Part shown: in pieces, positions 1-63,017 of the stretch
Position numbering within the stretch: position 1 is the first letter of the stretch
Layout: the number at the start of each line of letters is the position of its first letter
DNA from: Methylophilaceae bacterium
Lineage (GTDB): Bacteria > Pseudomonadota > Gammaproteobacteria > Burkholderiales > Methylophilaceae
Reading direction: 5' to 3'
Assembly (NCBI GenBank): GCA_049662045.1
Contig: JBATAW010000017.1
Span: forward strand, 30,431-94,430
Length of the DNA: 64,000 nucleotides
Notes under the pieces: generated by a model
Told to the model about the DNA's origin: nothing
Databases searched by the model: none
Seen by the model: the letters and a program-made list of their open reading frames with translations, nothing else
Position numbers and translations under genes: made by a program

Positions 1-521
1 TTGACCAAGCGGTCATGCAACGCCATGGTCAAACTGGCGGAATGGGCCTGATCCTAGCTGCGCTGCCTGAGCATCACCACCTGTTCCGCTCGGTCAGCAA
101 AAACCCGTTGCTACTGAAAGAGACCTTGGACGTGAATCCCGATGCTATCTCGCTCGACGTATTACGTGAGCGCGCTTGGCAACTGATTCAGCCGTATTTC
201 TTAGATCGCTTGGCGGGTTTGGTCGACGCCTACGGCGCCGCTACTGGCAAAGCTCTGGGGTCGGATACACTGGGCGACATTGCCAAAGCCGCATGGGAGG
301 GACGCGTGGCGACTTTATTGATTGAAGCTGACAGAATTATTCCAGGTCATATCAACACCGTCACAGGCAAAGTGACCACTGGTCAGCTAGACGACCCAGA
401 GATGGATGATCTGCTCGATGATGTAGGCGAGCTGGTGCTAAGGGCGGGTGGTGATGTAGTCATGGTTCCTACCGAGCGCATGCCTACCACCACGGGTGTG
501 GCGGCAGTCTATCGATTTTGA
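1..521 (+). CDS. baeRF3-like (bacterial archaeo-eukaryotic release-factor-like) protein, C-terminal part; 5' end lies outside the window
   Basis: The frame is open from nt 3 with no stop before the listed Met at 15, so the gene starts upstream of the window. The tail DDLLDDVGELVLRAGGDVVMVPTERMPTTTGVAAVYRF matches the conserved C-terminus of baeRF3-family proteins as I recall it. Hand-counted GC of the first 60 nt is about 57%, above the rest of the window. Confidence 0.5.
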   Translation, partial: DQAVMQRHGQTGGMGLILAALPEHHHLFRSVSKNPLLLKETLDVNPDAISLDVLRERAWQLIQPYFLDRLAGLVDAYGAATGKALGSDTLGDIAKAAWEGRVATLLIEADRIIPGHINTVTGKVTTGQLDDPEMDDLLDDVGELVLRAGGDVVMVPTERMPTTTGVAAVYRF

Positions 522-17523: not shown

Positions 17524-18795
17524 ATGAAAACCAATCAAAGCTTACACAATCGCCGACTAGCCGCCACGCCACGTGGCATTGGCGTGATGGCAAACTTTTT
17601 TATTGAGCGCGCACTGAATGCCGAAGTTTGGGATGTAGAAGGAAAACGCTATATAGACTTTGCGGGTGGCATAGCGGTGCTGAATACGGGGCATCGGCAT
17701 CCAAAAGTGGTGGCGGCTATCGAGGCGCAATTAAAGCAATTTACCCATACTTGCTACCAAGTGTTACCTTATGAAAGTTATGTGACGTTGGCCGAGCGTA
17801 TTAACCAGCTAACACCTGGTCAATTTGCCAAAAAAACTTGTTTTTTCTCTAGCGGGGCAGAGGCGGTTGAAAACGCCATTAAAATAGCCCGCGCTAGCAC
17901 GGGCCGTCCAGGGGTTATTGCATTTTCTGGCGCGTTTCACGGCCGCACCATGATGGGCTGTGCGCTAACAGGTAAAGTTTCGCCTTATAAAATCGGCTTT
18001 GGGCCTTTTCCTGCCGAAGTTTATCACGCGCCTTTTCCGGTGGATTTGCATGGCGTAAGTGTAGATGATGCAATCAATGCCATTCATACCATGTTTAAAT
18101 CAGATATCGACCCCAAACGAATAGCCGCCATTATTATTGAGCCAGTGCAAGGCGAGGGCGGTTTTTATGTAACGCCACCTGCGCTGATGCGCGCACTACG
18201 TGCTTTGTGTGACGAGCATGGTATCTTGCTAATTTTTGATGAAATACAAACTGGTTTTGGGCGCACTGGCAAAATGTTTGCTGCTGAGCATTACGATGTT
18301 TTGCCAGACATCATCACCATGGCAAAAAGCATGGCAGGCGGCACCACGCTATCTGCCGTGTGCGGTAAAGCAGAAGTGATGGATGGCCCAGCCCCTGGCG
18401 GCTTGGGTGGCACTTATGCAGGTAACCCATTAGCCATTGCGGCTTCTCACGCGGTAATAGACGTGATAGAACAAGAGCAACTTATTGCTCGTGCAAACCA
18501 ATTAGGTGAAAAATTAACCCAACATTTAACAGCGCTACAAGCAAAAGTGCCCGCATTAAAAGATGTCCGTGGGCTAGGCTCTATGATAGCGGCCGAATTT
18601 TATGACCCTAAATCAGGCGAGCCATCCGCCAGCATTGCCAAACAAGTGCAACAATTTGCCTTAGAAAAAGGCTTAATACTGCTGACCTGCGGAATCTATA
18701 CTAATGCCTTAAGGTTTTTATACCCACTGACCATAGAAGATAGCGTATTTGATGAAGCCATTGCAATCATAGATAAAGCTATTTTATCAATCTGA
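17524..18795 (+). CDS. gabT: 4-aminobutyrate--2-oxoglutarate transaminase
   Basis: 423 aa, GabT-like throughout: [44 protein letters not shown]. Confidence 0.92.
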
Positions 18796-18862: not shown

Positions 18863-19030
18863 TCAATATAAATGCCCAGTATTCTCGATAGTGATGACTC
18901 TCGTATCACCCAACTCTTTTGCGGTACGTTGCCTTTCTTGCAAAGTTGACCAGTCATGGTCTCCATAGGTAATCCCCCTAACGACCAAGATAACCAGTCG
19001 GCTTGAGGGTAAGAAATTTTGTTCGGTCAT
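18863..19030 (-). pseudogene. Possible relic of an alpha/beta-hydrolase C-terminus
   Basis: Hand-translated 55-aa ORF MTEQNFLPSSRLVILVVRGITYGDHDWSTLQERQRTAKELGDTRVITIENTGHLY. It resembles the final strand / His-loop region (..GxxDW....I.N.GH..) of alpha/beta hydrolases, and no N-terminal part is present. Confidence 0.25.
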
Positions 19031-19149: not shown

Positions 19150-21783
19150 TTATTGTTCAAGCACTAACCAGTAAGTTTGCAATTTCTTATCTAAGTTAAT
19201 AACGTAATAGCCATCTTTATAGGTAACTTTTACTTCTTTTCCATCTAGGTCGTTCCCTTTTTTGGTTAGCTTATGGCCTTCAATGGCTTTTATTTTTATT
19301 TCACCTTCCACTGGCTCTGATAAAAAAGGTAATTTATCATCTTTTCTTGGGACAGATCTTGCTGCAAGGCTTATATAAATCTTTTTAGATTGCTTGATTG
19401 GTGTGTCATCTAGGCTCTGTACTACGATGGTTGCGTTACGCGTGGTGGAACTAATTTCCACGTCATTTAACTTTAATTGTTCTCCACCAATCCAGCCCAT
19501 CGCTGCTTGGGTGCGAGGGGTGTCAATGGTGCTATAGCCTTTATCCCAATTACGTTTTATGGCCGTATTTCCTGCTTTATTTTCATATGTAACCTCTTGG
19601 GCATCAGCAGGTAATAAAGATTTGTTGGGGTCTGAAAACACTTTTGCATTGTTTGGTATTTGGCTTTCTTGAAGCCAAGGTAGTGCTTTGGTGCTGGGCA
19701 TGGCAATTTGTAACTTACCTAATTCCGAAGCTGTTCGTATAAATACGGAGTTACTAGGTGAAATGTTTTGATCAAATAATAATTTCTCAGGCTTTAATAC
19801 ATACAATGTATTAGCTTCGGGTATGTCTTGCCGACGATACATTAGCGCTGCCGCTGGCATAGTAGCCAGTAAGGCAGGGTCATTATAGGCATGCCAATTT
19901 GATGGGCGACCTTGCCATTGCGAAGGTGCGGTTAGAGGCTCTTGTGAGTATGCGTACTGCATCATCGCATCCCACCCTTGCATACTGGCATGGCTTGCAA
20001 TATACATCGGCAGGCTATGTCTGTCTGGCAGAGGGAAGGGCTCCGCATTCCATTCTGTGACACTCATTGGTTTTCCAACGACTTGGGCAGCAGATAACCA
20101 GTGTGTAATGTTAGCCGCATAAATAGGGTTGTTTTCTAGTGCGCCATAGGGTTGGTAGGCATGCGCATCTATCATGTCACCTTCACTTAATGCTGGTAAT
20201 GCACTGAGTGGATTATTACCCCAAGCGCTAGTAGTGACAATGGGCACTTTGACACCTAACTCACGTAGTTGCTTAATCATGCTGCTATTGAATTGGTGTT
20301 CTAGATTATTTAAAAATAATTTTGATGGGCCATGTTCCCAAGAGTGCCATATGCTCTCAGCAGGTAAGTTATTCGCTTTTGCAAATTTTTCAGCTGCCTC
20401 CATGTAGCGTTTGTTATGTTCAGGGACATTTTTATCCGCTAATAAATTATTGCCAAAATGGTTTGTTACATCATTTTCATTGGTGATAAGCATCGCTGCC
20501 ACCGCAGGTTCATCTGTTAAACGGGTGCCAGTGTAAGGATTAACATGCCCAACATAAGCCGCATTAAAGTCTTGCATCGCCTTTTGAATAGACGGGTTTA
20601 CATAGTTATAACCCTTTAAATCTGCGCTGATTTTATCTTTGCTAATTTCACTAAAATTGCTAATGCCATCTTCAGATTTTAAATGGCGCTCAACATGCAA
20701 GTCTAACCAGACGTAAATCCCTTCGTCTTTTAAACATTTAATCCACCAGTCAATTTTATCCATCGCTTCAGCACTGATTTTTTGTGTGCTATCGTTGGGC
20801 GTTCCAAAAATGTTTGGGTTAACCCATAGAGAGTCAAAATGGTGAACTCGGACGAGATTGAATCCTAACTCTGATAGTCGTTTGGCTTGCAGCTTCACAT
20901 TATCTTTTGGGGTGCCAAAAATGGCAAAAGCGCTGATGTTTGTGCCCCAAAATTTAGCAACAGTGCCATCTTCAAAAACTAATTGTTCACCTTTTGCTTT
21001 AACAAAGCCACGTTTACCCGCTGGGCGTTCTGGCGCATTTAAAAACGACAAATCGACTGGGGAAGTTTTCCAGTCAATGATGTTAGGAATCCAGTCGCTC
21101 TGGTCGGTGGTACCAAAACGCTCTGACAATGTAGGTGCAATAGAAATAGCATCCGCTAGGGTTAAAGTGGCTTTGTAATGACGTACGCCTTTAGGAATTT
21201 TATCTTGATAAAGGTAAACGCGTATTTCATTTTTATTGTTTTTTTCATAAAATATGTTTTCTGGTTTTGGTTCAAAACGCATTTCTATGCGTTGATTGCC
21301 TCTACCCCACGCCCAGCCGCTTTTATCAGCCAATATTTCAGGCTCACCCAATGATTGACCAAAGTTATCAAGATCAAATTTATATGAAATGCCACCACCG
21401 ACAGTTTCATATCTACCTGCTTTAGCGTCTAACTCAAAATCCCATGTCAGCTTGTGGTTGGTGACTTTGCTAATATCCGCATTTAAGGTGAAACCAAGCG
21501 TTGAATTGTGACTGCTAAGTTGGTATTGGCTAGGGCTATTTATTTTAAATTTGCTTTCTTGATAAGCCCAAACATAGTTTTTATCAAAGAAAACAAATGA
21601 AGAGTTTAACGCTTCCCCACCTCCCTTAACAAGTTTAGGTAAGCCGCTAACATCATCTAAACTGACTTGCCAATTTGATGCTGCAATTGCTGGAATAGAA
21701 AAGATCAGCAGCAACATTAATGACAACTGAAATTTATTTAAAAACCTAGATAAAATCTTCATTTCTACATCTTTTTCATTCAA
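19150..21783 (-). CDS. Secreted multidomain glycoside hydrolase, clan GH-A (GH5-like) TIM barrel with N- and C-terminal accessory domains
   Basis: 877 aa. Signal peptide LMLLLIFSIPAIAAS (alternative start at 21762). Clan GH-A landmarks occur in order: FWGTN, NLVRVHH, VWLDLH, acid/base ITNEND, AHAY, and nucleophile SVTEWN. Confidence 0.7.
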   Translation of the reverse strand: MNEKDVEMKILSRFLNKFQLSLMLLLIFSIPAIAASNWQVSLDDVSGLPKLVKGGGEALNSSFVFFDKNYVWAYQESKFKINSPSQYQLSSHNSTLGFTLNADISKVTNHKLTWDFELDAKAGRYETVGGGISYKFDLDNFGQSLGEPEILADKSGWAWGRGNQRIEMRFEPKPENIFYEKNNKNEIRVYLYQDKIPKGVRHYKATLTLADAISIAPTLSERFGTTDQSDWIPNIIDWKTSPVDLSFLNAPERPAGKRGFVKAKGEQLVFEDGTVAKFWGTNISAFAIFGTPKDNVKLQAKRLSELGFNLVRVHHFDSLWVNPNIFGTPNDSTQKISAEAMDKIDWWIKCLKDEGIYVWLDLHVERHLKSEDGISNFSEISKDKISADLKGYNYVNPSIQKAMQDFNAAYVGHVNPYTGTRLTDEPAVAAMLITNENDVTNHFGNNLLADKNVPEHNKRYMEAAEKFAKANNLPAESIWHSWEHGPSKLFLNNLEHQFNSSMIKQLRELGVKVPIVTTSAWGNNPLSALPALSEGDMIDAHAYQPYGALENNPIYAANITHWLSAAQVVGKPMSVTEWNAEPFPLPDRHSLPMYIASHASMQGWDAMMQYAYSQEPLTAPSQWQGRPSNWHAYNDPALLATMPAAALMYRRQDIPEANTLYVLKPEKLLFDQNISPSNSVFIRTASELGKLQIAMPSTKALPWLQESQIPNNAKVFSDPNKSLLPADAQEVTYENKAGNTAIKRNWDKGYSTIDTPRTQAAMGWIGGEQLKLNDVEISSTTRNATIVVQSLDDTPIKQSKKIYISLAARSVPRKDDKLPFLSEPVEGEIKIKAIEGHKLTKKGNDLDGKEVKVTYKDGYYVINLDKKLQTYWLVLEQ

Positions 21784-21825
21784 AAAGTAAAAAAACGTTT
21801 ACGTATTAATGTCATTAAAACGCAC

Positions 21826-23361
21826 TTATATATTATTGGATAATCGTATTGTTGGAAGTTCATGGACATTTGGTCTCAATGCAACAAAACCGATTGCTAT
21901 TCTTTCGTAGGATAAGCTTAACCCAGCAATTGCCCAATAAACAACTGGAATGACCAAAATACTACTAACAGAGGTAATAGTCACTAAAATAGCCACTTGA
22001 GTCACAAACAATACACGACCCAACAAATGCATATCACTTTGTTTGTCATCTAATTTCTTATAATTTTGAATGATGGTAAATACCACAATGGTGAAGAAGC
22101 TTAGGTATAGCATAAAACCTATGATGCCATACTCTAAAACTACATCAAGATAGGTATTCACTACATCGACAATACCTTCACCTTGTACCATACCTAGGCC
22201 TGCTAGATCTTCACGATATTTTACCGAGCCCAATAGGGGGTAGCGGTTAAATACGGTATAAGCTGCATCAAGCAGCCGTACACGATAATCTACATTTTCA
22301 GTATCTGTTTTACCAATAAAAGGAAGCATATCCATCACCTTTTTACCAGCAGGCATGCTAGTCATTATTGGAAGCGCGACTGCAACCGCAACGGCTAGCA
22401 TTGCCAGTCGTTTAATGGCTTTGGGGCTTATTATAATGTATAAAATAATTAATAACATTGCGCCTATCCACGGTCCACGCGATAGTGGGACATATAAACC
22501 ACCGAGTAAAAAAGTAAGTGCTATTAATTTGATATATTTATTTTTAGTAAAGTGAGATAAAAACAAGTAAAAACCCAAAGCAATGGCCATCACAAAGCCT
22601 AAAGCGATGGGTTGCCCTAATGTAGCTAGTGCTCTAAGGCTATCACCCCGATCTAGATAAGCGCCCATATCCCACTTGACACCCAAAAAGTCTTTTAAAT
22701 TACCATATAGTAACCAAAATAGACTATATTCAATGATTGCAATAGCGCCAGCCAACATGGCTGCAATTGTAAAGCCAGCAAGAACCTCTTTAAATTGTTG
22801 CAAACTTTTAATACCACGGCTTGCTACATAATAGGGTAAAAATATAGTGGCATAAGTAGATACCACTTTTCGCATGGCATCAGTAACAGTAGTATCGCGT
22901 AAAAGCAATACTACACCTAGAAACATATAAACTAATAATATTCTATCTACCCAATAGCTAAGAAAAGGCCGCGTTTCTCTTTCACTTCGTAGCGATAGAT
23001 ACGCTGGGAAAAGAACTGTTAACGATAAAATCGTGACGTAATCTATTGGGAACAAAAAATTCACAAGACCAAAACCAGGAATGTTTTCACTAATTCTAGG
23101 AAGTGCCAGCAACAATACAAAAAATAAAGCGAAATGATTTTTCTCTTGCTTACCTACAAACCATAAGATCAGGGCGGTTAGTCCTGCAAATATCCAAAAA
23201 TTGCCTGCTAAAAATGCAATAATGTTAACGGCAAACCACGTATTACGCCATCTATTAAATTGCTTTTCTTCCACAATGGAAGCAGTAATTTTTTTGGCAA
23301 AATAGAATGTGACGATTGCTATTAGAAGGATATAGGTAAGAGTTCTAACATTTAGCGGCAT
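21826..23361 (-). CDS. Wzy_C / O-antigen-ligase-like polytopic membrane protein (short paralog)
   Basis: 511 aa with about 12 TM segments. Wzy_C-type loop PLSRGPWIGAM and the distal motif VNTYLDVVLEYGIIGF. About 60% identical by eye to the N-terminal 480 aa of the upstream gene. Confidence 0.7.
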   Translation of the reverse strand: MPLNVRTLTYILLIAIVTFYFAKKITASIVEEKQFNRWRNTWFAVNIIAFLAGNFWIFAGLTALILWFVGKQEKNHFALFFVLLLALPRISENIPGFGLVNFLFPIDYVTILSLTVLFPAYLSLRSERETRPFLSYWVDRILLVYMFLGVVLLLRDTTVTDAMRKVVSTYATIFLPYYVASRGIKSLQQFKEVLAGFTIAAMLAGAIAIIEYSLFWLLYGNLKDFLGVKWDMGAYLDRGDSLRALATLGQPIALGFVMAIALGFYLFLSHFTKNKYIKLIALTFLLGGLYVPLSRGPWIGAMLLIILYIIISPKAIKRLAMLAVAVAVALPIMTSMPAGKKVMDMLPFIGKTDTENVDYRVRLLDAAYTVFNRYPLLGSVKYREDLAGLGMVQGEGIVDVVNTYLDVVLEYGIIGFMLYLSFFTIVVFTIIQNYKKLDDKQSDMHLLGRVLFVTQVAILVTITSVSSILVIPVVYWAIAGLSLSYERIAIGFVALRPNVHELPTIRLSNNI

Positions 23362-23545
23362 AATTATGGATGTTTAAAGATTAAGAGGTTGACAATTTAA
23401 ATTAGCCAGTATTAAGCTGTTTTAAAAGTGAACCATTGTAAAAATTGGCATCGTTTTATTGTATCAACTTTATAGGTAATCATGAAGTGAGTCATTGGGT
23501 CAGTTCAAAATAAAACATCATTATCTATTAAGGGTATACGATTCA

Positions 23546-25669
23546 TTAATTTACCTCACAGTCACTTAAAAATTCCATTTTTACGCCCAGCACTTCAATA
23601 ACATCTTGATTATTCAAAAGGTGAGCACGCGCGCCAATTGATACATTGTTTACAATCGGGTATAAGTCACCTTCTAAATGCATAATAAAATGGCCATTTT
23701 CTCTCTTAGCAATGACAGCAACTTGCACATTAGATTTACCCAGTTTACTGAGTACTTTTGATAGCATCAGGACTTTGCCAGAATTGGATCCATTTAATAT
23801 GACTAATTTACCTACTTTAACAGGTGCGTCAAATTCCGCTGGTAACGCTTTAGGCGGATGGATGGTTTTAATTGGTAGTTGTTGGGTTTTTTCAAAGTAG
23901 CTAGCGTGTTCAATCGGTCTGTTTTTCCTAGCCTGATAATACAGGCTACCAAGTTCTGGTTTTACAGTTTTCATCGTTGACAGCGCTTTAGGTAAAGTTG
24001 ATAGTTTAGGTGCAAAATTAGTTTGTTCGGCAAGCTTTTTTGATGCCAAGACAATACGTGGTATTGGCATGGTATCTACCACCACCTGATGCTTATTTAG
24101 CGCACTAAAAGCAACTCTGCTCGCGGGTAAAGCAGGCATCACATCGAAAGCAAGTCGATAAGTTTGTAATTCAACGGCTTGTTTGACTGTGTTTAATTGC
24201 TCTATCATGCGTGCGTAAGCTATGCAAATTCCACCAAATGCCCAATAAATCACTGGTAGCACAAGTATGCTGCTAACAGTAGTGATCGTCACCATGGTTG
24301 CCAAAATACTGGCTAACAAAGCGCGACCTAGAAGATGCATATCACTTGATTTATCTGGAATTTCTTTTACAGAACTCACCAACTTTTGTGTGATGATGAT
24401 AAAAAACCCGACAAAAAGTAATAAGCCTGACAAGCCATGATTAAGCACTTCAAATAAATATGAGTTGACAACATCTACGATGCCTTCACCTTGTGTCATC
24501 CCTAATGCGGCTAGTTCATCATAAAATTTTGTTGAGCCTAAAAGTGGATAGCGATTAAAAACGATCATCGCACTATCAATTAGTCGAACCCGATAATCAA
24601 CATTTTCTGTATCAGAGTGGCCTATGAAAGGCAGTAAATCAATAAATTTTTGTCCGCTAGGTACTGACGAGATGGCTGTAATGAGTATTGCAGCGGCAAG
24701 TGACAGTTTCACCATATTTTTAAATGCATTAGGGCTTATTGCAATAAAAATCACTATCAGTGCGATAGCGCCCACCCAAGGGCCACGAGAAATTGGCGCG
24801 TACAAACCTCCTAATATAATCCCCCAGCCAAGCCAGCGTAATAACTTCGATTTAATTTTTTTTGATATAAATAGATAACAGCCCATCGCCATCACCATTA
24901 AATAGCCAAGCAAGATGGGCTGCCCTAATGTCACTAATGCTCTTAAACTATCGCCACGCCCAAGGTAGCCGCCCATATCCCAAGCAACACCTAAGCTGTT
25001 TTTGAGATTGGCATACAATAGCCAAGAGCGGACAAATTCAAACATTGCCGCTGTTGCCGTGACCATGGTGGCTATTACAAACGCTGCAATCACCTCTTTA
25101 AATTGTTGTAAATTTTTTAGGCTTCTACTGGCAACATAATAGGGTAAAAACATGTCGGCAAAGCTTGTGACCCCAGCGCGCAGCGCATCAGTCACCGTTG
25201 TATCACGCGTTAATAACAACATATTGAGCAGTATGTAGGCAAGTATTATCTTATCTAAAAAGTAGCCTAAAAATGGGACGGTTTCTCTATTTTTGCGCAG
25301 TGATAAGTAAGCAGGTAGCAATACCATCAGTGATAGTATCGTCACGTAATCAATTGCAAAAAGAAAGTTGACGATGCCTAAGCCAGGTATTTCGCTACTG
25401 ATTCTAGGAATAACGAATAATAATACTAAAAATAAGGCAAAGGGATTTTGCTCTTTTTTTCCAACATAAAATAATAGTACTGCACTTAACATTGCAAAAA
25501 CCCAAAAATTGCCTGCTAAAAATGCAATAAGTGTTATCGCCAGCCATGAATTGCGCCAGCGATTAAATTGTTGCTCAGAAACGATAGATGCGGTTACCTT
25601 CTTTGCAATAAAGAAAGTGATGAGTGCTAGTGCAATAATGAAGATCAGCGATCTAAGATGTTCTGACAT
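23546..25669 (-). CDS. Wzy_C / O-antigen-ligase-like membrane protein fused to a ~220-aa cytoplasmic tail ending in an FHA-like domain
   Basis: 707 aa. The membrane core is paralogous to 21826-23361 (PISRGPWVGAI, VNSYLFEVLNHGLSGL). The last ~92 aa (KLVILNGSNSGKVLML...LGKSNVQVAVIAKRENGHFIMHLEGDLYPIVNNVSIG...LLNNQDVIEVLGVKMEF) have the strand pattern of an FHA domain. This is a by-eye call only. Confidence 0.6.
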   Translation of the reverse strand: MSEHLRSLIFIIALALITFFIAKKVTASIVSEQQFNRWRNSWLAITLIAFLAGNFWVFAMLSAVLLFYVGKKEQNPFALFLVLLFVIPRISSEIPGLGIVNFLFAIDYVTILSLMVLLPAYLSLRKNRETVPFLGYFLDKIILAYILLNMLLLTRDTTVTDALRAGVTSFADMFLPYYVASRSLKNLQQFKEVIAAFVIATMVTATAAMFEFVRSWLLYANLKNSLGVAWDMGGYLGRGDSLRALVTLGQPILLGYLMVMAMGCYLFISKKIKSKLLRWLGWGIILGGLYAPISRGPWVGAIALIVIFIAISPNAFKNMVKLSLAAAILITAISSVPSGQKFIDLLPFIGHSDTENVDYRVRLIDSAMIVFNRYPLLGSTKFYDELAALGMTQGEGIVDVVNSYLFEVLNHGLSGLLLFVGFFIIITQKLVSSVKEIPDKSSDMHLLGRALLASILATMVTITTVSSILVLPVIYWAFGGICIAYARMIEQLNTVKQAVELQTYRLAFDVMPALPASRVAFSALNKHQVVVDTMPIPRIVLASKKLAEQTNFAPKLSTLPKALSTMKTVKPELGSLYYQARKNRPIEHASYFEKTQQLPIKTIHPPKALPAEFDAPVKVGKLVILNGSNSGKVLMLSKVLSKLGKSNVQVAVIAKRENGHFIMHLEGDLYPIVNNVSIGARAHLLNNQDVIEVLGVKMEFLSDCEVN

Positions 25670-25916
25670 GGTGGTGATTTATAGAGATACGGTGCGTATG
25701 ATAGTGTTATATGCGTTTAATTAAAAGTACCCATTTAGGTCGTATTGCATGATACTTGCCATAGATCCATTAGTCTTGCGGAGTAGTGAAGCGCTTATTT
25801 TTTGCACCTAAAGTTCAATCTTAATTGTCATACTAGTAGCGCAAAAAAAAATGTAAGAAAATTGTTATATCAGCGACTAAGCTACTTGTTAATGACAAAA
25901 GACTATAAAGATCATC

Positions 25917-26438
25917 ATGTTGATTAAAATTACTTCCGTAGGAAAAGGCGCATACGAAAATTCTATCAATACTCTTAATTACTTTTCCGATAGCCTTCCA
26001 CAGCTGTTTTTGCGACTAATACTTGCATGGGAGTTTGGCGAGGCTGGATTTGAAAAATTACATGGCATAAACTGGTTTGCCGATGTAGTATTTCCTTTTC
26101 CATTCAATATACTACCGCCTAATATTAGCTGGGGTATTGCTACTTTTTTTGAAATTGCAGGTGCATTTGCCATCGCATTTGGCTTTGCAACAAGATTTTT
26201 TACAGTTTCACTGATTATATTAATCATTGTGGCCATAACTTCTGTACATTGGCCAGAGCATTGGTCAACGCTGTCTGAGCTAGGCAAAGGATACCGTATA
26301 TTAGATGAAAATGAAGATGGCTTTGGTAATTACAAATTGCCACTTATGTATATAGTCATGTTTTTACCATTACTATTTGGTGGTGCAGGCAAATTAAGTG
26401 TGGATTACTGGATTGAAAAATATTTTAATCCAAAATAA
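25917..26438 (+). CDS. DoxX-family small membrane protein
   Basis: 173 aa with 4 predicted TM segments. The N-terminal LRLILAWEFGEAGFEKL is typical of DoxX-like proteins. The exact start is uncertain. Confidence 0.5.
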   Translation: MLIKITSVGKGAYENSINTLNYFSDSLPQLFLRLILAWEFGEAGFEKLHGINWFADVVFPFPFNILPPNISWGIATFFEIAGAFAIAFGFATRFFTVSLIILIIVAITSVHWPEHWSTLSELGKGYRILDENEDGFGNYKLPLMYIVMFLPLLFGGAGKLSVDYWIEKYFNPK

Positions 26439-33435: not shown

Positions 33436-34485
33436 ATGCAAAAAATCATTAAATTTAAATATTTACTCATCATATTGGCATTATTTCAAGTAGTTGGTTG
33501 CAATTATCCTGATTCATGGGGTTATTCAAACAGTACTCAACTAAGCAGTAAAACCTTATATGTTGGGTTTAATGGATTAGGTGAATATAGCAAAAGACAA
33601 TTTTATGAAGATAAAAAATCTCTCAAGAATTCATGGCTAAAAGTTGCACTGACGCCTAGTCAAATGACGCAATTAATTGACCAAGTGGATTTTGAAAAAC
33701 AGTTCGTTTTGGTCTATACTCTTGGTAAAAGAGCCAATATCACTGGAAAAATTACCATGGCGAGCATCAGATACACCTCAGATATTCAATCTAAAACTTC
33801 TAGCGTTGATACGATGACAAATATTGGTATTGCAGACTATAAAGATTGTAATATTCGCGTCGATATAACTTCCTTTCCATTTACCGTAGAGCTAGTCGAG
33901 CGACCTAAAGACCGATTTAAATTAATGGCTGCAAGCGATGCACAATATAACTTTGAAGATGACTGTAAAAAACCTGTGGCTGGCGAAGCAACCCTAGATG
34001 GCACTTACCTAGAGAGTAAAACCTTGCATATTGGGTTTAATGGATTAAGTAAGCATCGTGACTCTGAGGATTTTTATGAAGATAAAAAATCTCTTGAAAA
34101 TTCATGGCTTAAAGTAGCACTAACACCTATTGAAATGACGAAATTGATAGCCCAAGTGGACTTTGAAAAACAATTCGTTTTGGTCTATGTGGTTGGCGAA
34201 AGAGCTAATATCACGGGAAAAATGTCGATGGATCGCATCAGGTACACCTCAGATATTCAATCTAAAACTTCAACCATTGAAGCAACCACCAATATCGGTT
34301 ACGTTATTAAAGATGACTGCAATATTAGCGACGATGTTAGATCTTTTCCATTTATTTTGCAGTTAGTTGAACGTCCTGAAAACGGATTTAAAATAGTTAA
34401 GCCACATTATGGTCAATATGACTTTAGAGAAAGTTGTGCAATAAAAACTATGTCAGGCCAAGCAACCCAACCGCCGCAGTTTTAA
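33436..34485 (+). CDS. Lipoprotein of unknown function built from two tandem ~156-aa repeats
   Basis: Signal peptide with the lipobox VVGC. Repeat 1 spans aa 38-186 and repeat 2 spans aa 194-343; both run SKTL[YH][VI]GFNGL...FYEDKKSL[KE]NSWLKVALTP...VDFEKQFVLVY...ANITGK...IRYTSDIQSKTS, and each has two Cys. Confidence 0.7.
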   Translation: MQKIIKFKYLLIILALFQVVGCNYPDSWGYSNSTQLSSKTLYVGFNGLGEYSKRQFYEDKKSLKNSWLKVALTPSQMTQLIDQVDFEKQFVLVYTLGKRANITGKITMASIRYTSDIQSKTSSVDTMTNIGIADYKDCNIRVDITSFPFTVELVERPKDRFKLMAASDAQYNFEDDCKKPVAGEATLDGTYLESKTLHIGFNGLSKHRDSEDFYEDKKSLENSWLKVALTPIEMTKLIAQVDFEKQFVLVYVVGERANITGKMSMDRIRYTSDIQSKTSTIEATTNIGYVIKDDCNISDDVRSFPFILQLVERPENGFKIVKPHYGQYDFRESCAIKTMSGQATQPPQF

Positions 34486-34684: not shown

Positions 34685-35902
34685 TTAGCCCCAAGCACCA
34701 TCGACTCTAGGTTTTACTAAGATAGGCGCATAAATGAGGGTGAAAATAGAAAAGCTTAGTATCCATAAAATAGACGAAACCATGACCCAATTTATATAAT
34801 GCTGACTTGTGAGCATGGGCACAAAAGAGCGAAATATGACGCTAATAATAATGCCTGCAAAAATAATGCTCAACCAAGCGGAGGGTTTTCTGATTTCGCG
34901 CCCAGTGTGGCCTAAAGCAACGCGTGACATCATGCCCAGTGTTATTAACCCTATGCCGCCAATGGTAAAAATATGTATGGTTAAAATGGCTAAGTGCGGA
35001 ATCATCGTCTGTATTCCATAAAATAAAAAACCAATGTTGATTAGCCATGCAGATGTGTATAGACTCCACAGCAAGGGCACGCGCCATAAGCCATAGATAT
35101 GCCAATTAAACAGCCGATAACCATTTAATATAAAAATTGCCCAAGAAAATAACGCGGTGATGATGGCGTTATGTATCAATATTACATTGATAAATAACGC
35201 CATAAATAAGACCATTATGCTGATATCCAGCCATTTATACTGCGTTAACTGAACAACTTTATCTGTGCCTCTTTCTATAAAAAAGGGTAAAACACGTCGG
35301 CTAATCATTAATATGAGGCCAACAAATAAGAGCACAGCACCGTAGATGGCATATTGCATACCAGTAGTGACTATTCCAAAGCAAGCAAGATAAAAGTAGA
35401 GGTTGCCAACCGTTAACAAAACGACTTTACTCACCACGCCAATCTGCTTCCACTGTCTTGATTTAACGATGGGGATGCTGATGGCAATAATGAGCAATAG
35501 ATCAAAAAGCAAGTCAGCCAATGCGACCCAAAGTAAAAATTGCGTGCCAAATAAAAACAATATTCTTGCGCTAGCCCAAAGCGCCAGCAGCAGCATCAAG
35601 GGCTTGCCATTTGTAGTCTGAATACCTGTCCAGTTTTTTACGGCCGTTAACAAAAAACCAGCAACAACGGCCATACTGTAACCATAGAGCATCTCGTGGG
35701 CATGCCATTGGCTTGGTGAGATATTAGTCAGTTGCAAATGAATATTGGTGTTATAAACAAGCATCCATAGCGTGATTGAAATAACGGCAAAAATGCCCGC
35801 TCCTAAAAAAAATGGCCTAAACCCGAGGTTAAATAAAGCGAATTTATTTTTAAGCTGCTGTGGCGCTTTTTTAAGCGGAGGTATTTGAATTTGAACTAAC
35901 AT
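34685..35902 (-). CDS. nnrS: NnrS family membrane protein (NO-stress associated heme/copper protein)
   Basis: 405 aa with about 12 TM segments. Contains FALFNLGFRPFFLGAG, WHAHEMLYGY and AGFLLTAVKNWTG, all typical of NnrS. Confidence 0.85.
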   Translation of the reverse strand: MLVQIQIPPLKKAPQQLKNKFALFNLGFRPFFLGAGIFAVISITLWMLVYNTNIHLQLTNISPSQWHAHEMLYGYSMAVVAGFLLTAVKNWTGIQTTNGKPLMLLLALWASARILFLFGTQFLLWVALADLLFDLLLIIAISIPIVKSRQWKQIGVVSKVVLLTVGNLYFYLACFGIVTTGMQYAIYGAVLLFVGLILMISRRVLPFFIERGTDKVVQLTQYKWLDISIMVLFMALFINVILIHNAIITALFSWAIFILNGYRLFNWHIYGLWRVPLLWSLYTSAWLINIGFLFYGIQTMIPHLAILTIHIFTIGGIGLITLGMMSRVALGHTGREIRKPSAWLSIIFAGIIISVIFRSFVPMLTSQHYINWVMVSSILWILSFSIFTLIYAPILVKPRVDGAWG

Positions 35903-36202: not shown

Positions 36203-36424
36203 TTAAAACATTTTTTGTACCCGTTGCACTTTGGTATAGGCAGCTAATAGCTGCTGGTGCATCTGGCTGGCTTGCATATTTTCACCTAGATTTTCTAAGC
36301 CAAGATATTGCGTTTGTGCTTTGACTAAGCTTTTGGCTTCTTGCAAAGTTTTCTCGCCGTACATCAGTTGTAAATTATCTTCAAATAGTGTGATATCCGA
36401 CGCTAGCGTGTCTTTAATTTGCAC
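36203..36424 (-). CDS. 73-aa ORF, probably the displaced C-terminal tail of ycaO
   Basis: GTG start, overlapping the ycaO stop by 11 nt in another frame. The tail ...MYGEKT...YLGLENL...QMHQQLLAAYTKVQRVQKMF resembles my recollection of the E. coli YcaO C-terminus (..MYG....YGL....HQSLLKAYEKLQRAK..). Confidence 0.4.
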   Translation of the reverse strand: MQIKDTLASDITLFEDNLQLMYGEKTLQEAKSLVKAQTQYLGLENLGENMQASQMHQQLLAAYTKVQRVQKMF

Positions 36425-37649
36425 TAGCTGACTGATCTACAGGGTAAATTTCGCTCATACCAGGCACAAAAATGCGGCACGCATACACCCCTAAATGGGT
36501 AAAGTCGGCAATGTATAGGTCATGCCCACTATTGTGAATGGTATTCACGCACCAATGGTAATCTTCTTCTGTTGCCGCTTTTGTTAATGCTAAGCCTCCA
36601 AAGTTCCAATCCACAAAGTCAAAGTCTGGTGTGCTGCGTAAAAAGTTCCAGCTAATCACACCGCTAGAATCCACAAAGTGAATTTCTAAGTTTTGTGCGT
36701 CTGCAATTTCCTCCATATCAAAGCCTGGTGCTACAAAACCTTTTAAGCTATCGAGCGCGCGGCCTTGTAATAGCTCAGTCAACGCACGTTCTAACGCCAC
36801 TTCAAAGCGCGGATGTGCGCCAAAGCTCGCAAAACAGCCTTGATCTTCTGGGTGGAGGAGGGTGACGTTCATCACGGGATATTGACCGCCAAGTGAGGCA
36901 TCTTTCACTAAAATACCATAACCAGCATCGCGCAAACCTTGAATGCCCGCGGCAATGCGCGGATAACGGTTAATCACGGCTTGCGGCACATCTGGCAAGC
37001 AAATACCTTCACGAATAATTTTATATTTAATATCGCGTTCAAAAATTTCGGCCATAGCCTGCGTGCGGGCTTCCATCATGGTGTTGCCCGCAGACATGCC
37101 GTTGCTGACGTATAAATTACCGATTAAGTTAACGGGAAAATAGGCCACAACATTGTCGCGTAAACGAGTATAAGGGATTGCACAAATACCACGTTTCGTA
37201 TTGCCTGAATTAAAATCAATTAACTGGCTTGCTAACACCATGCCTTCAGGGTTGTAAAAAGCTTGTAACTCTGGGGTGAGTAAATCTTTTGGCCATTGAT
37301 TACCTTTTACTGGAAACCATTTTTCATTAGGATAATGCACAAAATCATAATTTGCCACGGATTCACCTAGGTAAAAATGCGTCCAAAAATAATTAGTGCT
37401 GAGACGCTCAAAATACTCACCCAAAGCGCTGGCGCGCGCTGCTAATTGGCTTGCACCTTTGCCATTGGTAAACAGTCTTGTGCAGTCTTTATCAATTACA
37501 TGTACCGACCAAATTCCTTCAATTTCATTCAGCCAGGATTTTTCTTCAATATAAATGCCAAGAGCAAGTAGTTTGCCTTGCAGTGTTGCAATAGAAGATT
37601 CTAGCGAGGCATCCTTACTAGGAATAAAAGTTTCAGTTTGTTTGTTCAT
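36414..37649 (-). CDS. ycaO: YcaO-domain protein (RimO/S12 methylthiolation accessory factor type), C-terminally truncated relative to E. coli
   Basis: Colinear with E. coli YcaO from TFIPSKDASLESSIA through NGKGAS, ALGEYFERLSTNYFW, GNLYVSNGMSAGNT, FASFGAHP and GVYACRIFVPGMSEIYP. It stops at 411 aa, versus 586 aa in E. coli. Confidence 0.85.
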   Translation of the reverse strand: MNKQTETFIPSKDASLESSIATLQGKLLALGIYIEEKSWLNEIEGIWSVHVIDKDCTRLFTNGKGASQLAARASALGEYFERLSTNYFWTHFYLGESVANYDFVHYPNEKWFPVKGNQWPKDLLTPELQAFYNPEGMVLASQLIDFNSGNTKRGICAIPYTRLRDNVVAYFPVNLIGNLYVSNGMSAGNTMMEARTQAMAEIFERDIKYKIIREGICLPDVPQAVINRYPRIAAGIQGLRDAGYGILVKDASLGGQYPVMNVTLLHPEDQGCFASFGAHPRFEVALERALTELLQGRALDSLKGFVAPGFDMEEIADAQNLEIHFVDSSGVISWNFLRSTPDFDFVDWNFGGLALTKAATEEDYHWCVNTIHNSGHDLYIADFTHLGVYACRIFVPGMSEIYPVDQSASAN

Positions 37650-61326: not shown

Positions 61327-61402
<76 letters not shown>

Positions 61403-61476
61403 TAAAGTAGTAAATTCATGCAAAAAAGCGTGTAATGTAGTAAAATACGGGTATTGCAAACTGCAATATTTCTTAG

Positions 61477-61552
61477 GTCCCCATCGTCTAGAGGCCTAGG
61501 ACACCTCCCTTTCACGGAGGCGACCGGGGTTCGAATCCCCGTGGGGACGCCA
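61477..61552 (+). tRNA. tRNA-Glu (anticodon TTC)
   Basis: GTCCCCATCGTCTAGAGGCCTAGGACA, anticodon stem CCTCC/GGAGG with loop CTTTCAC, T-arm GGGGTTCGAATCCCC, and an encoded CCA. Near-identical in architecture to E. coli tRNA-Glu. Confidence 0.95.
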
Positions 61553-63017
61553 TTAATTCCCCGCTAGATATTTTGTAAGTAATCTTACAGGTCATAGCGG
61601 GTGTGGCATTTAGTTCAATTTTATCAACCAGTGCGTTGATGAAGTCTTTAGCTGATGCTCTATCTGTCATATCAAGATTCTCAGATAATGTTTTGAGCAT
61701 TTTAGCAACATCTCTCTCTGAAATGGCCAAAAGTAACTTGTTGGCATTGTAGTCATTTTCTGCTTTATCGATTTCATCTAATAAATTGGTGCGTTGCTTT
61801 TCCAGTGTTTCTATTCTTGCCAATAAAGCTCTAGGATTTTCTATTTCTTCTAGTAAACATGTAAGCTTTTCAATTTTTAAGCTGATTTCGCTGACTTGTT
61901 TCTTGTAGGCCTTAATTTCAGTGTCCGGCACGGGTTGTGCGGCCTGGCGTGCGCATTTGGTGACGTCTTTGATAAAGTCTTCTGACTCTAAATCAGAGAT
62001 GACTTTGTTAAATATTGCATTTTCAATCTCTTCTTTTGAGTAACGCTTACCTTTTGCCACGCGATAGTAAACACCATCACAGCCATGCCATGCGTCACCT
62101 TCGGCATTGACCATGATGCCGCTGAGTAGAAAGTCCGATGCTGTTTTGTAGGGTTTGTGTGCGGTGTTTTCTAGCGTTTGCAGTATTGTCTCCGCTTCAT
62201 CAGTGTTGATAAGTGCTGAATGCGTGTCATGCTGAATCAACCATTCGTGACGAGGCCTGCGTTTAACACCACCTTTGTAGCCGCCACTGGATAGGCGTTC
62301 ATTTTGGACATTCCATACCGTGTGGCCAGCATAAGTCAGTGCATTCCATTCCATGCCAATCAGTGTGGATTGTGCTAGGTCAACCAAGCCACTTTCTTTG
62401 GCTGATTTAGATCGTGCGATGCCATTGGTTCTCAGTTTGAAGTAATGCGCCACTTTTTTAGCGTCTTCTGATAAGATGAGTTTTGATTTGGTGACAGGTT
62501 CACCGTCGCGTATGGCACCTGTCTCGTGATATTCAAGTTGATATCCAAGGGGTGCGCGACCCCCTGCCCGGAAACCTTGTTTAACATTCTCAGCCATGCC
62601 TGCTAGCCCCTTTTCTTTACTCATTAAACTGTGCAGTTGATCAAAAGCTTGCATGACGGAGCGTATCACTACGTCAACCACACTGCCCGTTTCGGGCATT
62701 TTAGAATATAAAATTTTAATGTTACGTTTGTCGCACTCAAAATGAACCGCGTGCGCCAGATATTGATTGCGCGCAATACGTGATGTATCCATGACGAGTA
62801 GATATTGCCAGCCACGGTCTTTATTCTTGAATTGTGTAAGCAGTGCCTGAAAGGCTGGGCGATTGTCATCTTTGCCAGACTCCACCGCATCAGCATATTC
62901 ACCAACTACGGTAAATGATTTTGCTTTTGCCATGGCTTGCAACTCACGTCGCTGCACGTCAATGGAGACGTCAGATCGATCTTTTGAGGATCTTAGATAT
63001 AACACAGCATTATTCAT
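61512..63017 (-). CDS. Large serine recombinase (resolvase/invertase N-domain, recombinase domain, coiled coil)
   Basis: N-terminal catalytic motif AVLYLRSSKDRSD...VQRREL, DTSRIARN, a central recombinase domain, and a coiled-coil-rich C-terminus. The last ~13 codons and the stop codon are encoded by the complement of the 3' half of tRNA-Glu. Confidence 0.85.
   Translation of the reverse strand: MNNAVLYLRSSKDRSDVSIDVQRRELQAMAKAKSFTVVGEYADAVESGKDDNRPAFQALLTQFKNKDRGWQYLLVMDTSRIARNQYLAHAVHFECDKRNIKILYSKMPETGSVVDVVIRSVMQAFDQLHSLMSKEKGLAGMAENVKQGFRAGGRAPLGYQLEYHETGAIRDGEPVTKSKLILSEDAKKVAHYFKLRTNGIARSKSAKESGLVDLAQSTLIGMEWNALTYAGHTVWNVQNERLSSGGYKGGVKRRPRHEWLIQHDTHSALINTDEAETILQTLENTAHKPYKTASDFLLSGIMVNAEGDAWHGCDGVYYRVAKGKRYSKEEIENAIFNKVISDLESEDFIKDVTKCARQAAQPVPDTEIKAYKKQVSEISLKIEKLTCLLEEIENPRALLARIETLEKQRTNLLDEIDKAENDYNANKLLLAISERDVAKMLKTLSENLDMTDRASAKDFINALVDKIELNATPAMTCKITYKISSGELMASPRGFEPRSPP

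Follow-up and report, generated by a model that had tools for sequence, protein, structure and literature searches.

An intact Wzy_C-GH5 gene block in a Methylophilaceae genome, probably a detached piece of a Pea-type exopolysaccharide pathway, with a degenerate FHA-like tail on one membrane protein

The window analysed here is a stretch of 64,000 nucleotides from the metagenome-assembled genome of a Methylophilaceae bacterium (assembly GCA_049662045.1, contig JBATAW010000017.1, positions 30,431 to 94,430), and our subject is a block of three genes within it, the triad, which encodes a 707-amino-acid (aa) membrane protein of the Wzy_C family with a long cytoplasmic tail, an untailed 511-aa paralog of that protein, and a secreted glycosidase of family GH5 (Table 1). 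The triad is flanked by gabT (17524-18795) on one side and, on the other, by a DoxX-family gene (25917-26438) followed by recR-ybaB-dnaX; the same arrangement is present in an independent Logan assembly (L006; SRR28060500), and therefore it is not a mis-assembly. All three open reading frames (ORFs) are full length and intact; NCBI places the start of the GH5 gene at an ATG at 21762, seven codons downstream of the TTG used here, to give a protein of 870 aa. Where columns are invariant in all other homologs compared (14 for the Wzy_C proteins, 30 for the GH5 landmark residues), the window copies keep 156 of 156 in the GH5 protein, 119 of 122 in the 707-aa protein, 114 of 122 in the 511-aa protein and 36 of 40 in the tail, and the changes are conservative. 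This retention argues against decay of the triad, whose proteins are 61-76% identical to their nearest relatives. The presumed promoter would lie in the divergent intergenic region upstream of the 707-aa gene; scans for promoters and terminators returned sites no more numerous than in shuffled sequence.

Table 1. Positions in the window of the triad genes, their notable domains and the adjoining intergenic region
Feature	Position	Strand	Basis
707-aa tailed Wzy_C protein: polytopic membrane domain (aa 1 to ~485) and ~220-aa cytoplasmic tail	23546..25669	-	ORF, Pfam
Juxtamembrane tail segment (aa ~500-545), consensus ELxxYRLAFDxxPxLPAxRLAFSxLTxHRVVVDxKPIPRI	24035..24172	-	conserved in 12/12 tailed homologs
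Degenerate FHA-fold domain at the C-terminus of the tail (aa ~620-702)	23564..23812	-	AlphaFold2 (AF2) model, per-residue confidence (pLDDT) 80-91; Foldseek
511-aa untailed Wzy_C paralog, ortholog of the single Wzy_C gene in Pea-type loci	21826..23361	-	Pfam, tree grouping
Secreted GH5 / clan GH-A glycosidase, 877 aa from TTG start	19150..21783	-	Pfam, residues, AF2, Foldseek
GH5 protein architecture: signal peptide, N-terminal β-sandwich (~aa 38-215), (β/α)8 barrel (~aa 255-660), C-terminal β-domain (~aa 660-877)			AF2
Divergent intergenic region between the 707-aa gene and DoxX, presumed promoter of the triad	25670..25916	.	position only

The family assignments of a first-pass annotation of this DNA, which had named two paralogous Wzy_C-like proteins and a secreted clan GH-A enzyme, are borne out by profile and structural evidence. 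Against the Pfam Wzy_C model (PF04932, gathering score 31.7 bits) the 707-aa protein scores 33.7 bits and the 511-aa protein 50.0 bits, and the two are 57-58% identical over a membrane domain of ~490 residues with ~12 hydrophobic segments. The 877-aa protein exceeds the gathering score of Pfam GH5 (PF00150; 40.4 bits against 23.5), and its AF2 model (pLDDT 87, predicted TM-score 0.86) places a (β/α)8 barrel between two additional β-domains. In an alignment of 30 homologs, drawn from Pseudomonas and from metagenome-assembled genomes (MAGs) labelled Bacteroidetes, Desulfobulbaceae and Hydrogenophilales, R312, H315, N435-E436 (the NE motif, with the acid/base), H541-x-Y543, E577-W578 (the nucleophile, part of the TEW motif T576-E577-W578) and W604 are all invariant, and sequence identity stays near 55% even in MAGs labelled as other phyla. 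The NE pair aligns with the ANE of the solved GH5 mannanase 8gf3, and most of the top Foldseek matches of the model are GH5 β-mannanases and β-glucanases (probability 1.00, TM-score ~0.6 on the target) at 13-17% identity, a distance which makes this a divergent GH5 lineage.

The genomic setting of homologous genes provides most of what can be said about function. A contig search seeded with an alignment found 290 relatives (the single 707-aa query had given pattern matches and no relatives), and the best 79 GTDB species-representative loci of these, mostly from Pseudomonas with some Betaproteobacteria, were surveyed by tblastn for six partner families: a flippase, a GMC oxidoreductase, a tyrosine-kinase-like (BY-kinase-like) ATPase, a chain-length protein (polysaccharide co-polymerase, PCP), an outer-membrane protein and Wza. 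The GH5 gene is present in 67 of the 79 loci and lies immediately downstream of Wzy_C in 65. Where both flanks extend to at least 8 kb (65 loci), all six partners were found in 51, five in 7, two in 6 and one in 1, and there was no locus with none. In Pseudomonas a single Wzy_C gene is followed directly by GH5 in a similar locus. The triad itself, with its tailed Wzy_C protein, sits within a full exopolysaccharide (EPS) locus in all five tailed relatives with enough contig (Methylotenera L001/L002, L007, L008, L009 and L010; 53-63% identity), where the core order is MOP-type flippase, then tailed Wzy_C - Wzy_C - GH5, then GMC oxidoreductase, an ORF of ~60 aa, the BY-kinase-like ATPase, the PCP (Wzz/GNVR), a putative outer-membrane protein of ~384 aa and Poly_export, usually with genes for GT2 and GT4 glycosyltransferases, a WecG-type protein and a hexapeptide acetyltransferase upstream. 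Such loci are not entirely rigid: L008 has no adjacent glycosyltransferases, and Pseudomonas L025, L030, L065 and L075 have no adjacent export genes, which offers a precedent for dispersal. The ORF of ~60 aa precedes the GMC oxidoreductase directly in every Pea-type locus examined (for example L004:8234-8428, L007:17119-17304, L008:12666-12848 and L009:18167-18346); it has no family assignment and may be a small subunit of that enzyme.

In a neighbour-joining tree of membrane domains the window's 707-aa copy falls with tailed copies and its 511-aa copy with untailed copies, all from genomes with complete loci, and over the membrane domain the 511-aa protein shares 67-73% identity with the untailed copies found in lineages that also bear a tailed one, L007 and L008 included. 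Each paralog thus groups with its complete-locus counterparts, and therefore the duplication and the fusion had taken place before the block parted from its locus. Overall, the tailed copies do not form a single clade (0 of 100 bootstraps), as a second tailed group (the L001/L009 type) branches with an untailed copy, possibly through gene conversion between the tandem paralogs.

Pea-type EPS contributes to biofilm stability in Pseudomonas putida, and several of the Pseudomonas loci retrieved (L004, L018, L079 and others) match the Pea cluster and its neighbours PP_3126-3131 in gene order, with Wzy_C and GH5 beside a flippase, GMC oxidoreductase, acetyltransferases, GT2 and GT4 enzymes, VirK/DUF535, PCP, BY-kinase-like ATPase and Wza. 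In strain KT2440 the Pea cluster comprises PP_3132-3142 (PMC7716237); its annotated order is a transporter (PP_3132) and an oxidoreductase (PP_3133), then glycosyltransferase, serine acetyltransferase, GT2 and VirK genes (PMC4287175), and the nearby PP_3130 carries the annotation 'glycoside hydrolase family (EPS turnover?)' (PMC7937890). The window 511-aa and 877-aa proteins are ~43-47% and 50-55% identical, respectively, to the Pseudomonas proteins. What distinguishes the window from Pea is that it holds only the polymerase-hydrolase block, with no other Pea-type gene in 64 kb, and that it adds a tailed paralog that Pseudomonas lacks. Pseudomonas-type Pea loci, with proteins ~70-80% identical to those of Pseudomonas, also occur on 2.86-Mb contigs of assemblies given actinobacterial names, Gordonia sp. 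IEGM753 (L031) and Rhodococcus sp. IEGM1300 (P0060), labels that probably reflect mislabelled or contaminated assemblies.

More broadly, the relatives' loci resemble the Wzx/Wzy pathways of group 1 capsule type (Wzx, Wzy, Wzc/PCP-2a, Wza) in having a MOP flippase, Wzy_C, a PCP with a separate BY-kinase-like ATPase, and Poly_export. They differ from these in the large GH5 enzyme fixed directly downstream of the polymerase, in a core that includes the GMC oxidoreductase and the ORF of ~60 aa and, in Methylophilaceae, in a duplicated polymerase of which one copy bears the FHA-like tail. There is also a likeness to XrtA/PEP-CTERM EPS loci such as the methanolan-type eps cluster of Methylobacillus, as the best NCBIfam matches of the L007 neighbours are TIGR03007 (chain-length determinant), TIGR03018 (tyrosine autokinase) and TIGR03015 (ATPase). 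All three scores fall below the model cutoffs (204 against 279, 166 against 231 and 297 against 325) and no exosortase gene was seen in the relatives' loci retrieved, and an identity as XrtA/PEP-CTERM systems was rejected.

Set beside these loci, the window is exceptional. The first-pass annotation had remarked that no other polysaccharide machinery lies near the triad, and this holds for the whole 64 kb: Pfam searches and the tblastn census together found no flippase, glycosyltransferase, chain-length regulator or export gene. Of the full Pea-type gene set, which has all six partners in 51 of the 65 well-flanked relatives, the window retains only the Wzy_C/GH5 block, and it is the only one of ~85 loci examined to have the triad and no partner gene nearby. 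Both flanks of the ancestral locus are missing, and therefore relocation of the block fits better than deletion around it. An 'empty' gabT-DoxX-recR site was sought with recR as anchor and none was found, as synteny downstream of recR is not conserved among relatives; in the closest of them (L092, RecR 85% identical) DoxX is followed by an MsrQ-like gene, and in the window msrQ/msrP lie at 50.5-52.4 kb. DoxX itself (25917-26438, plus strand) scores above the NCBIfam cutoff for 'HvfX family Cu-binding RiPP maturation protein' (126 bits against 80); no further Hvf-type gene adjoins it, and recR stands beside it both here and in L092. Between the GH5 gene and gabT there is an ORF of 55 aa (18863-19030, minus strand), also called in the Logan assembly and ending ...ENTGHLY, which was considered as the C-terminal remnant of an α/β-hydrolase gene and rejected, there being no Pfam match.

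The notion that the triad is AT-rich and was acquired horizontally does not survive calculation. Its GC content is 38.9%, where the whole window has 41.3%, and a value as low as this or lower occurs in 22.6% of 6.5-kb windows, which is within chance; per-gene z-scores for GC and for GC at third codon positions lie between -0.5 and -1.3, and the codon-usage distances of the three genes to the pooled other genes (0.61, 0.62 and 0.84) are typical in a range of 0.46-1.44. The housekeeping genes lpxB, lpxA, fabZ, lpxD, skp and bamA, at 38-45 kb of the window, have 36-40% GC, as the triad does, and the puu genes and recR that had served as the contrasting flanks happen to come from the part of the window with more GC. 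Neither direct nor inverted repeats were found to bound the triad, no integrase or transposase gene lies at its borders, and the nearest tRNA is 7 kb away. With ordinary composition and no border signatures, therefore, horizontal acquisition is without support.

We think it likely that the three genes form the conserved centre of a Pea-type Wzx/Wzy-dependent EPS pathway, here detached from the rest of its locus. A Wzx/Wzy-dependent pathway with flippase, PCP/BY-kinase and Wza needs a Wzy polymerase, and Wzy_C is the only candidate in the relatives' loci; by elimination, therefore, the 511-aa protein is most likely the repeat-unit polymerase. It would join undecaprenyl-pyrophosphate-linked repeat units at the periplasmic face of the inner membrane, and the 707-aa protein, as an old duplicate, would be a second polymerase subunit or isoform whose cytoplasmic degenerate FHA domain may dock a regulatory partner. 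The 877-aa enzyme is most likely the pathway's secreted glycosidase and would trim or release the nascent polymer. BcsZ, PslG, PelA and AlgL are glycosidases or lyases that do this for the polymers of their own pathways, and the likeness is to a secreted or periplasmic enzyme encoded within a biosynthetic locus and presumably cleaving that pathway's product, the difference being that the window enzyme belongs to a divergent GH5 lineage and carries an additional β-domain at either end. The block would at some point have been separated from the flippase, GMC oxidoreductase, ATPase, PCP, outer-membrane protein and Wza genes, to lie now between gabT and DoxX-recR, and it probably still works with partner genes, which would be encoded elsewhere in the genome.

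Several observations weigh against this reading. None of the six partner families occurs in the window, which reaches 19 kb beyond the triad on the upstream side and 38 kb on the downstream side. The equivalence to Pea rests on gene order and annotation rather than on sequence comparison with KT2440, and the choice of polymerase over ligase was made by elimination rather than from diagnostic residues, no solved Wzy or WaaL structure having been detected as a usable PDB match by phmmer or by profile search with the Wzy_C proteins. Finally, the reading gives no account of why two polymerase paralogs should be retained.

Pfam Wzy_C spans ligases and O-oligosaccharyltransferases (O-OTases) as well as polymerases, and the database annotation of the two proteins is 'O-antigen ligase family protein', so that they might be WaaL- or PglL-like enzymes which attach a glycan to lipid A-core or to proteins. 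We regard this as highly improbable, given that Wzy_C is the sole polymerase candidate beside the flippase, chain-length protein, BY-kinase-like ATPase and Wza of the relatives, and that its close pairing with a secreted glycosidase suits the processing of a polymer; moreover, neither protein matches an NCBIfam ligase or O-OTase model, including TIGR03097, the exosortase-associated O-glycosylation-ligase model, a weak negative in so divergent a family (no NCBIfam model reached E <= 1 for the 707-aa protein and none scored significantly for the 511-aa protein). The isolation of the triad could also mean that the rest of the EPS locus was lost, leaving an orphan remnant, recently stranded and functionless, that has not yet decayed. 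That this is the only triad among the ~85 loci without a nearby partner gene, and that even L092 differs from the window in gene arrangement downstream of recR, would be in keeping with such a history, which we nevertheless judge unlikely: the ORFs are full length and have kept nearly all of their invariant residues, 61-76% identity to the nearest relatives implies ample time for decay, and the loss of both ancestral flanks fits relocation better than a surrounding deletion.

Very unlikely, in our view, is the model with which the first-pass annotation had accounted for the same isolation, a self-contained and horizontally acquired envelope-glycan module under phosphothreonine control, acting on a substrate made by unrelated machinery and belonging to no described system. 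Local isolation does speak for that model, and it could draw further on the FHA fold of the tail and on the PP2C phosphatases encoded beside homologs of the tail domain, both described below. It is contradicted, however, by two observations: the usual place of triad homologs is within ordinary Wzx/Wzy EPS loci, the block belonging in all the other genomes examined to a pathway that is complete and dedicated, and the composition and codon usage of the window copy are ordinary, with no signatures of mobility. As for phosphothreonine control, the tail lacks the residues it would need, and no kinase or phosphatase gene was found in any triad locus.

If the triad is, as we favor, a displaced piece of a Pea-type pathway, its only unusual feature is the degenerate FHA-like tail fused to one of its membrane proteins. 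Across 12 tailed homologs three parts of the tail are conserved: a juxtamembrane segment of ~40 aa, which is modelled with low pLDDT and is missing from the stand-alone double-FHA proteins described below, a short helix with the motif LGSLYxxARxxRP, and a C-terminal domain of ~90 aa. The top Foldseek matches of this last domain are all FHA domains (GarA, OdhI, DgcB and Ki67; probability 1.00, root-mean-square deviation 1.8-3.3 Å), with TM-scores on the target of 0.64-0.77, or 0.28-0.29 when measured against full-length DgcB chains, so that the FHA-like character proposed from the sequence proved correct at the level of the fold. The YscD/PscD-type FHA domains, which do not bind phosphopeptides, are also among the matches. 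Sequence profiles hardly see the relationship: Pfam FHA (PF00498) does not match the window tail and matches only 5 of the 12 homologous tails, weakly (best E = 0.0037), and a tail profile run against PDB sequences yielded nothing beyond chance matches.

The closest relatives of the tail domain are to be found in a different kind of protein altogether. An exhaustive profile search of 1.84 billion representative proteins with the tail domain returned 790 clusters at E <= 1e-10, nearly all of them short stand-alone proteins in which a low-complexity linker joins a canonical N-terminal FHA domain to a C-terminal homolog of the tail domain; the window tail domain is 52% identical over 101 aa (E = 1e-27) to the C-terminal domain of one of these, P0243. 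When tail-type and canonical domains are aligned, the tail type has GK in place of GR, a 12-aa deletion that removes the β4 strand and the loop before SxxH, replacements at the Ser and His positions, and G-x-x-x-P at the site of the S-T-N-G-T asparagine loop, with loss of the Asn of NG. The residues that bind phosphothreonine are therefore absent from the tail, a condition it shares with the cytoplasmic domains of YscD/PscD and with the C-terminal domains of the stand-alone double-FHA proteins, in which the FHA fold likewise occurs without them. The domain is most likely a protein-protein docking or regulatory module and not a reader of phosphothreonine.

Where then does signalling enter? In two Methylophilaceae genomes the stand-alone double-FHA protein is encoded in a conserved operon of ribH-nusB-PP2C phosphatase-double FHA-GAF/HD protein, a context of signalling and not of EPS synthesis (L090:9120-12503 and L091:9165-12481; the GAF/HD protein is of the GAF/HD_5 type, and the double-FHA family of 790 clusters has no curated whole-protein name). 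The tail domain of the window differs from these proteins in being fused to a Wzy_C protein, in lacking the canonical N-terminal FHA domain and in having no PP2C or kinase gene nearby. The suggestion that the triad is under phosphothreonine control thus has only indirect support, in that the nearest homologs of the tail domain are encoded beside PP2C phosphatases, and fails in that the binding residues are gone and the triad loci are devoid of kinases and phosphatases; since the homologs alone are found in a PP2C operon, any link to Ser/Thr phospho-signalling is therefore indirect. It is tempting to speculate that the tailed paralog is a 'Rosetta-stone' fusion which couples EPS polymerization to the PP2C-FHA-GAF/HD module of Ser/Thr phosphorylation, and possibly to a nucleotide second messenger, an idea we hold as tentative and somewhat doubtful; the coupling could be achieved by docking of the stand-alone regulator or its partner. 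Were it true, this would be a new way of regulating a Wzy polymerase, and the detached triad would be a regulated polymerase-hydrolase unit serving machinery encoded elsewhere. A literature search found no paper describing a Wzy-FHA-like fusion, and it appears to be undescribed.

Some other features of the window lie apart from the triad. A serine recombinase of 501 aa with a Resolvase domain (61512-63017, minus strand) stands beside tRNA-Ala and tRNA-Glu (61327-61552), with its 5' end overlapping tRNA-Glu, and may be the border of an integrated element, at a distance from the triad. Genes for a stand-alone YcaO-family protein (36414-37649, minus strand) and an NnrS protein (34685-35902, minus strand) have an adenylate/guanylate cyclase gene on one side and the lpx cluster on the other, and are adjoined by an ORF of 349 aa (33436-34485) without family; a partial ORF at the edge of the window (15-521, plus strand) matches baeRF_family3, of bacterial archaeo-eukaryotic release-factor-like proteins.

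For the most part the finding is unremarkable, amounting to one piece of a widespread Pea-type Wzx/Wzy EPS pathway, and its interest lies in three aspects of that piece. The adjacency of Wzy_C and GH5, conserved in most species-representative loci, marks a functional pair that is biochemically uncharacterized. In a Methylophilaceae clade the polymerase has been duplicated and one copy has captured a degenerate FHA-fold domain otherwise belonging to PP2C-linked signalling proteins, from which follows the testable hypothesis that EPS polymerization may be subject to post-translational control. And the persistence of an intact block apart from its pathway is a caution for the prediction of EPS capacity from loci in MAGs.

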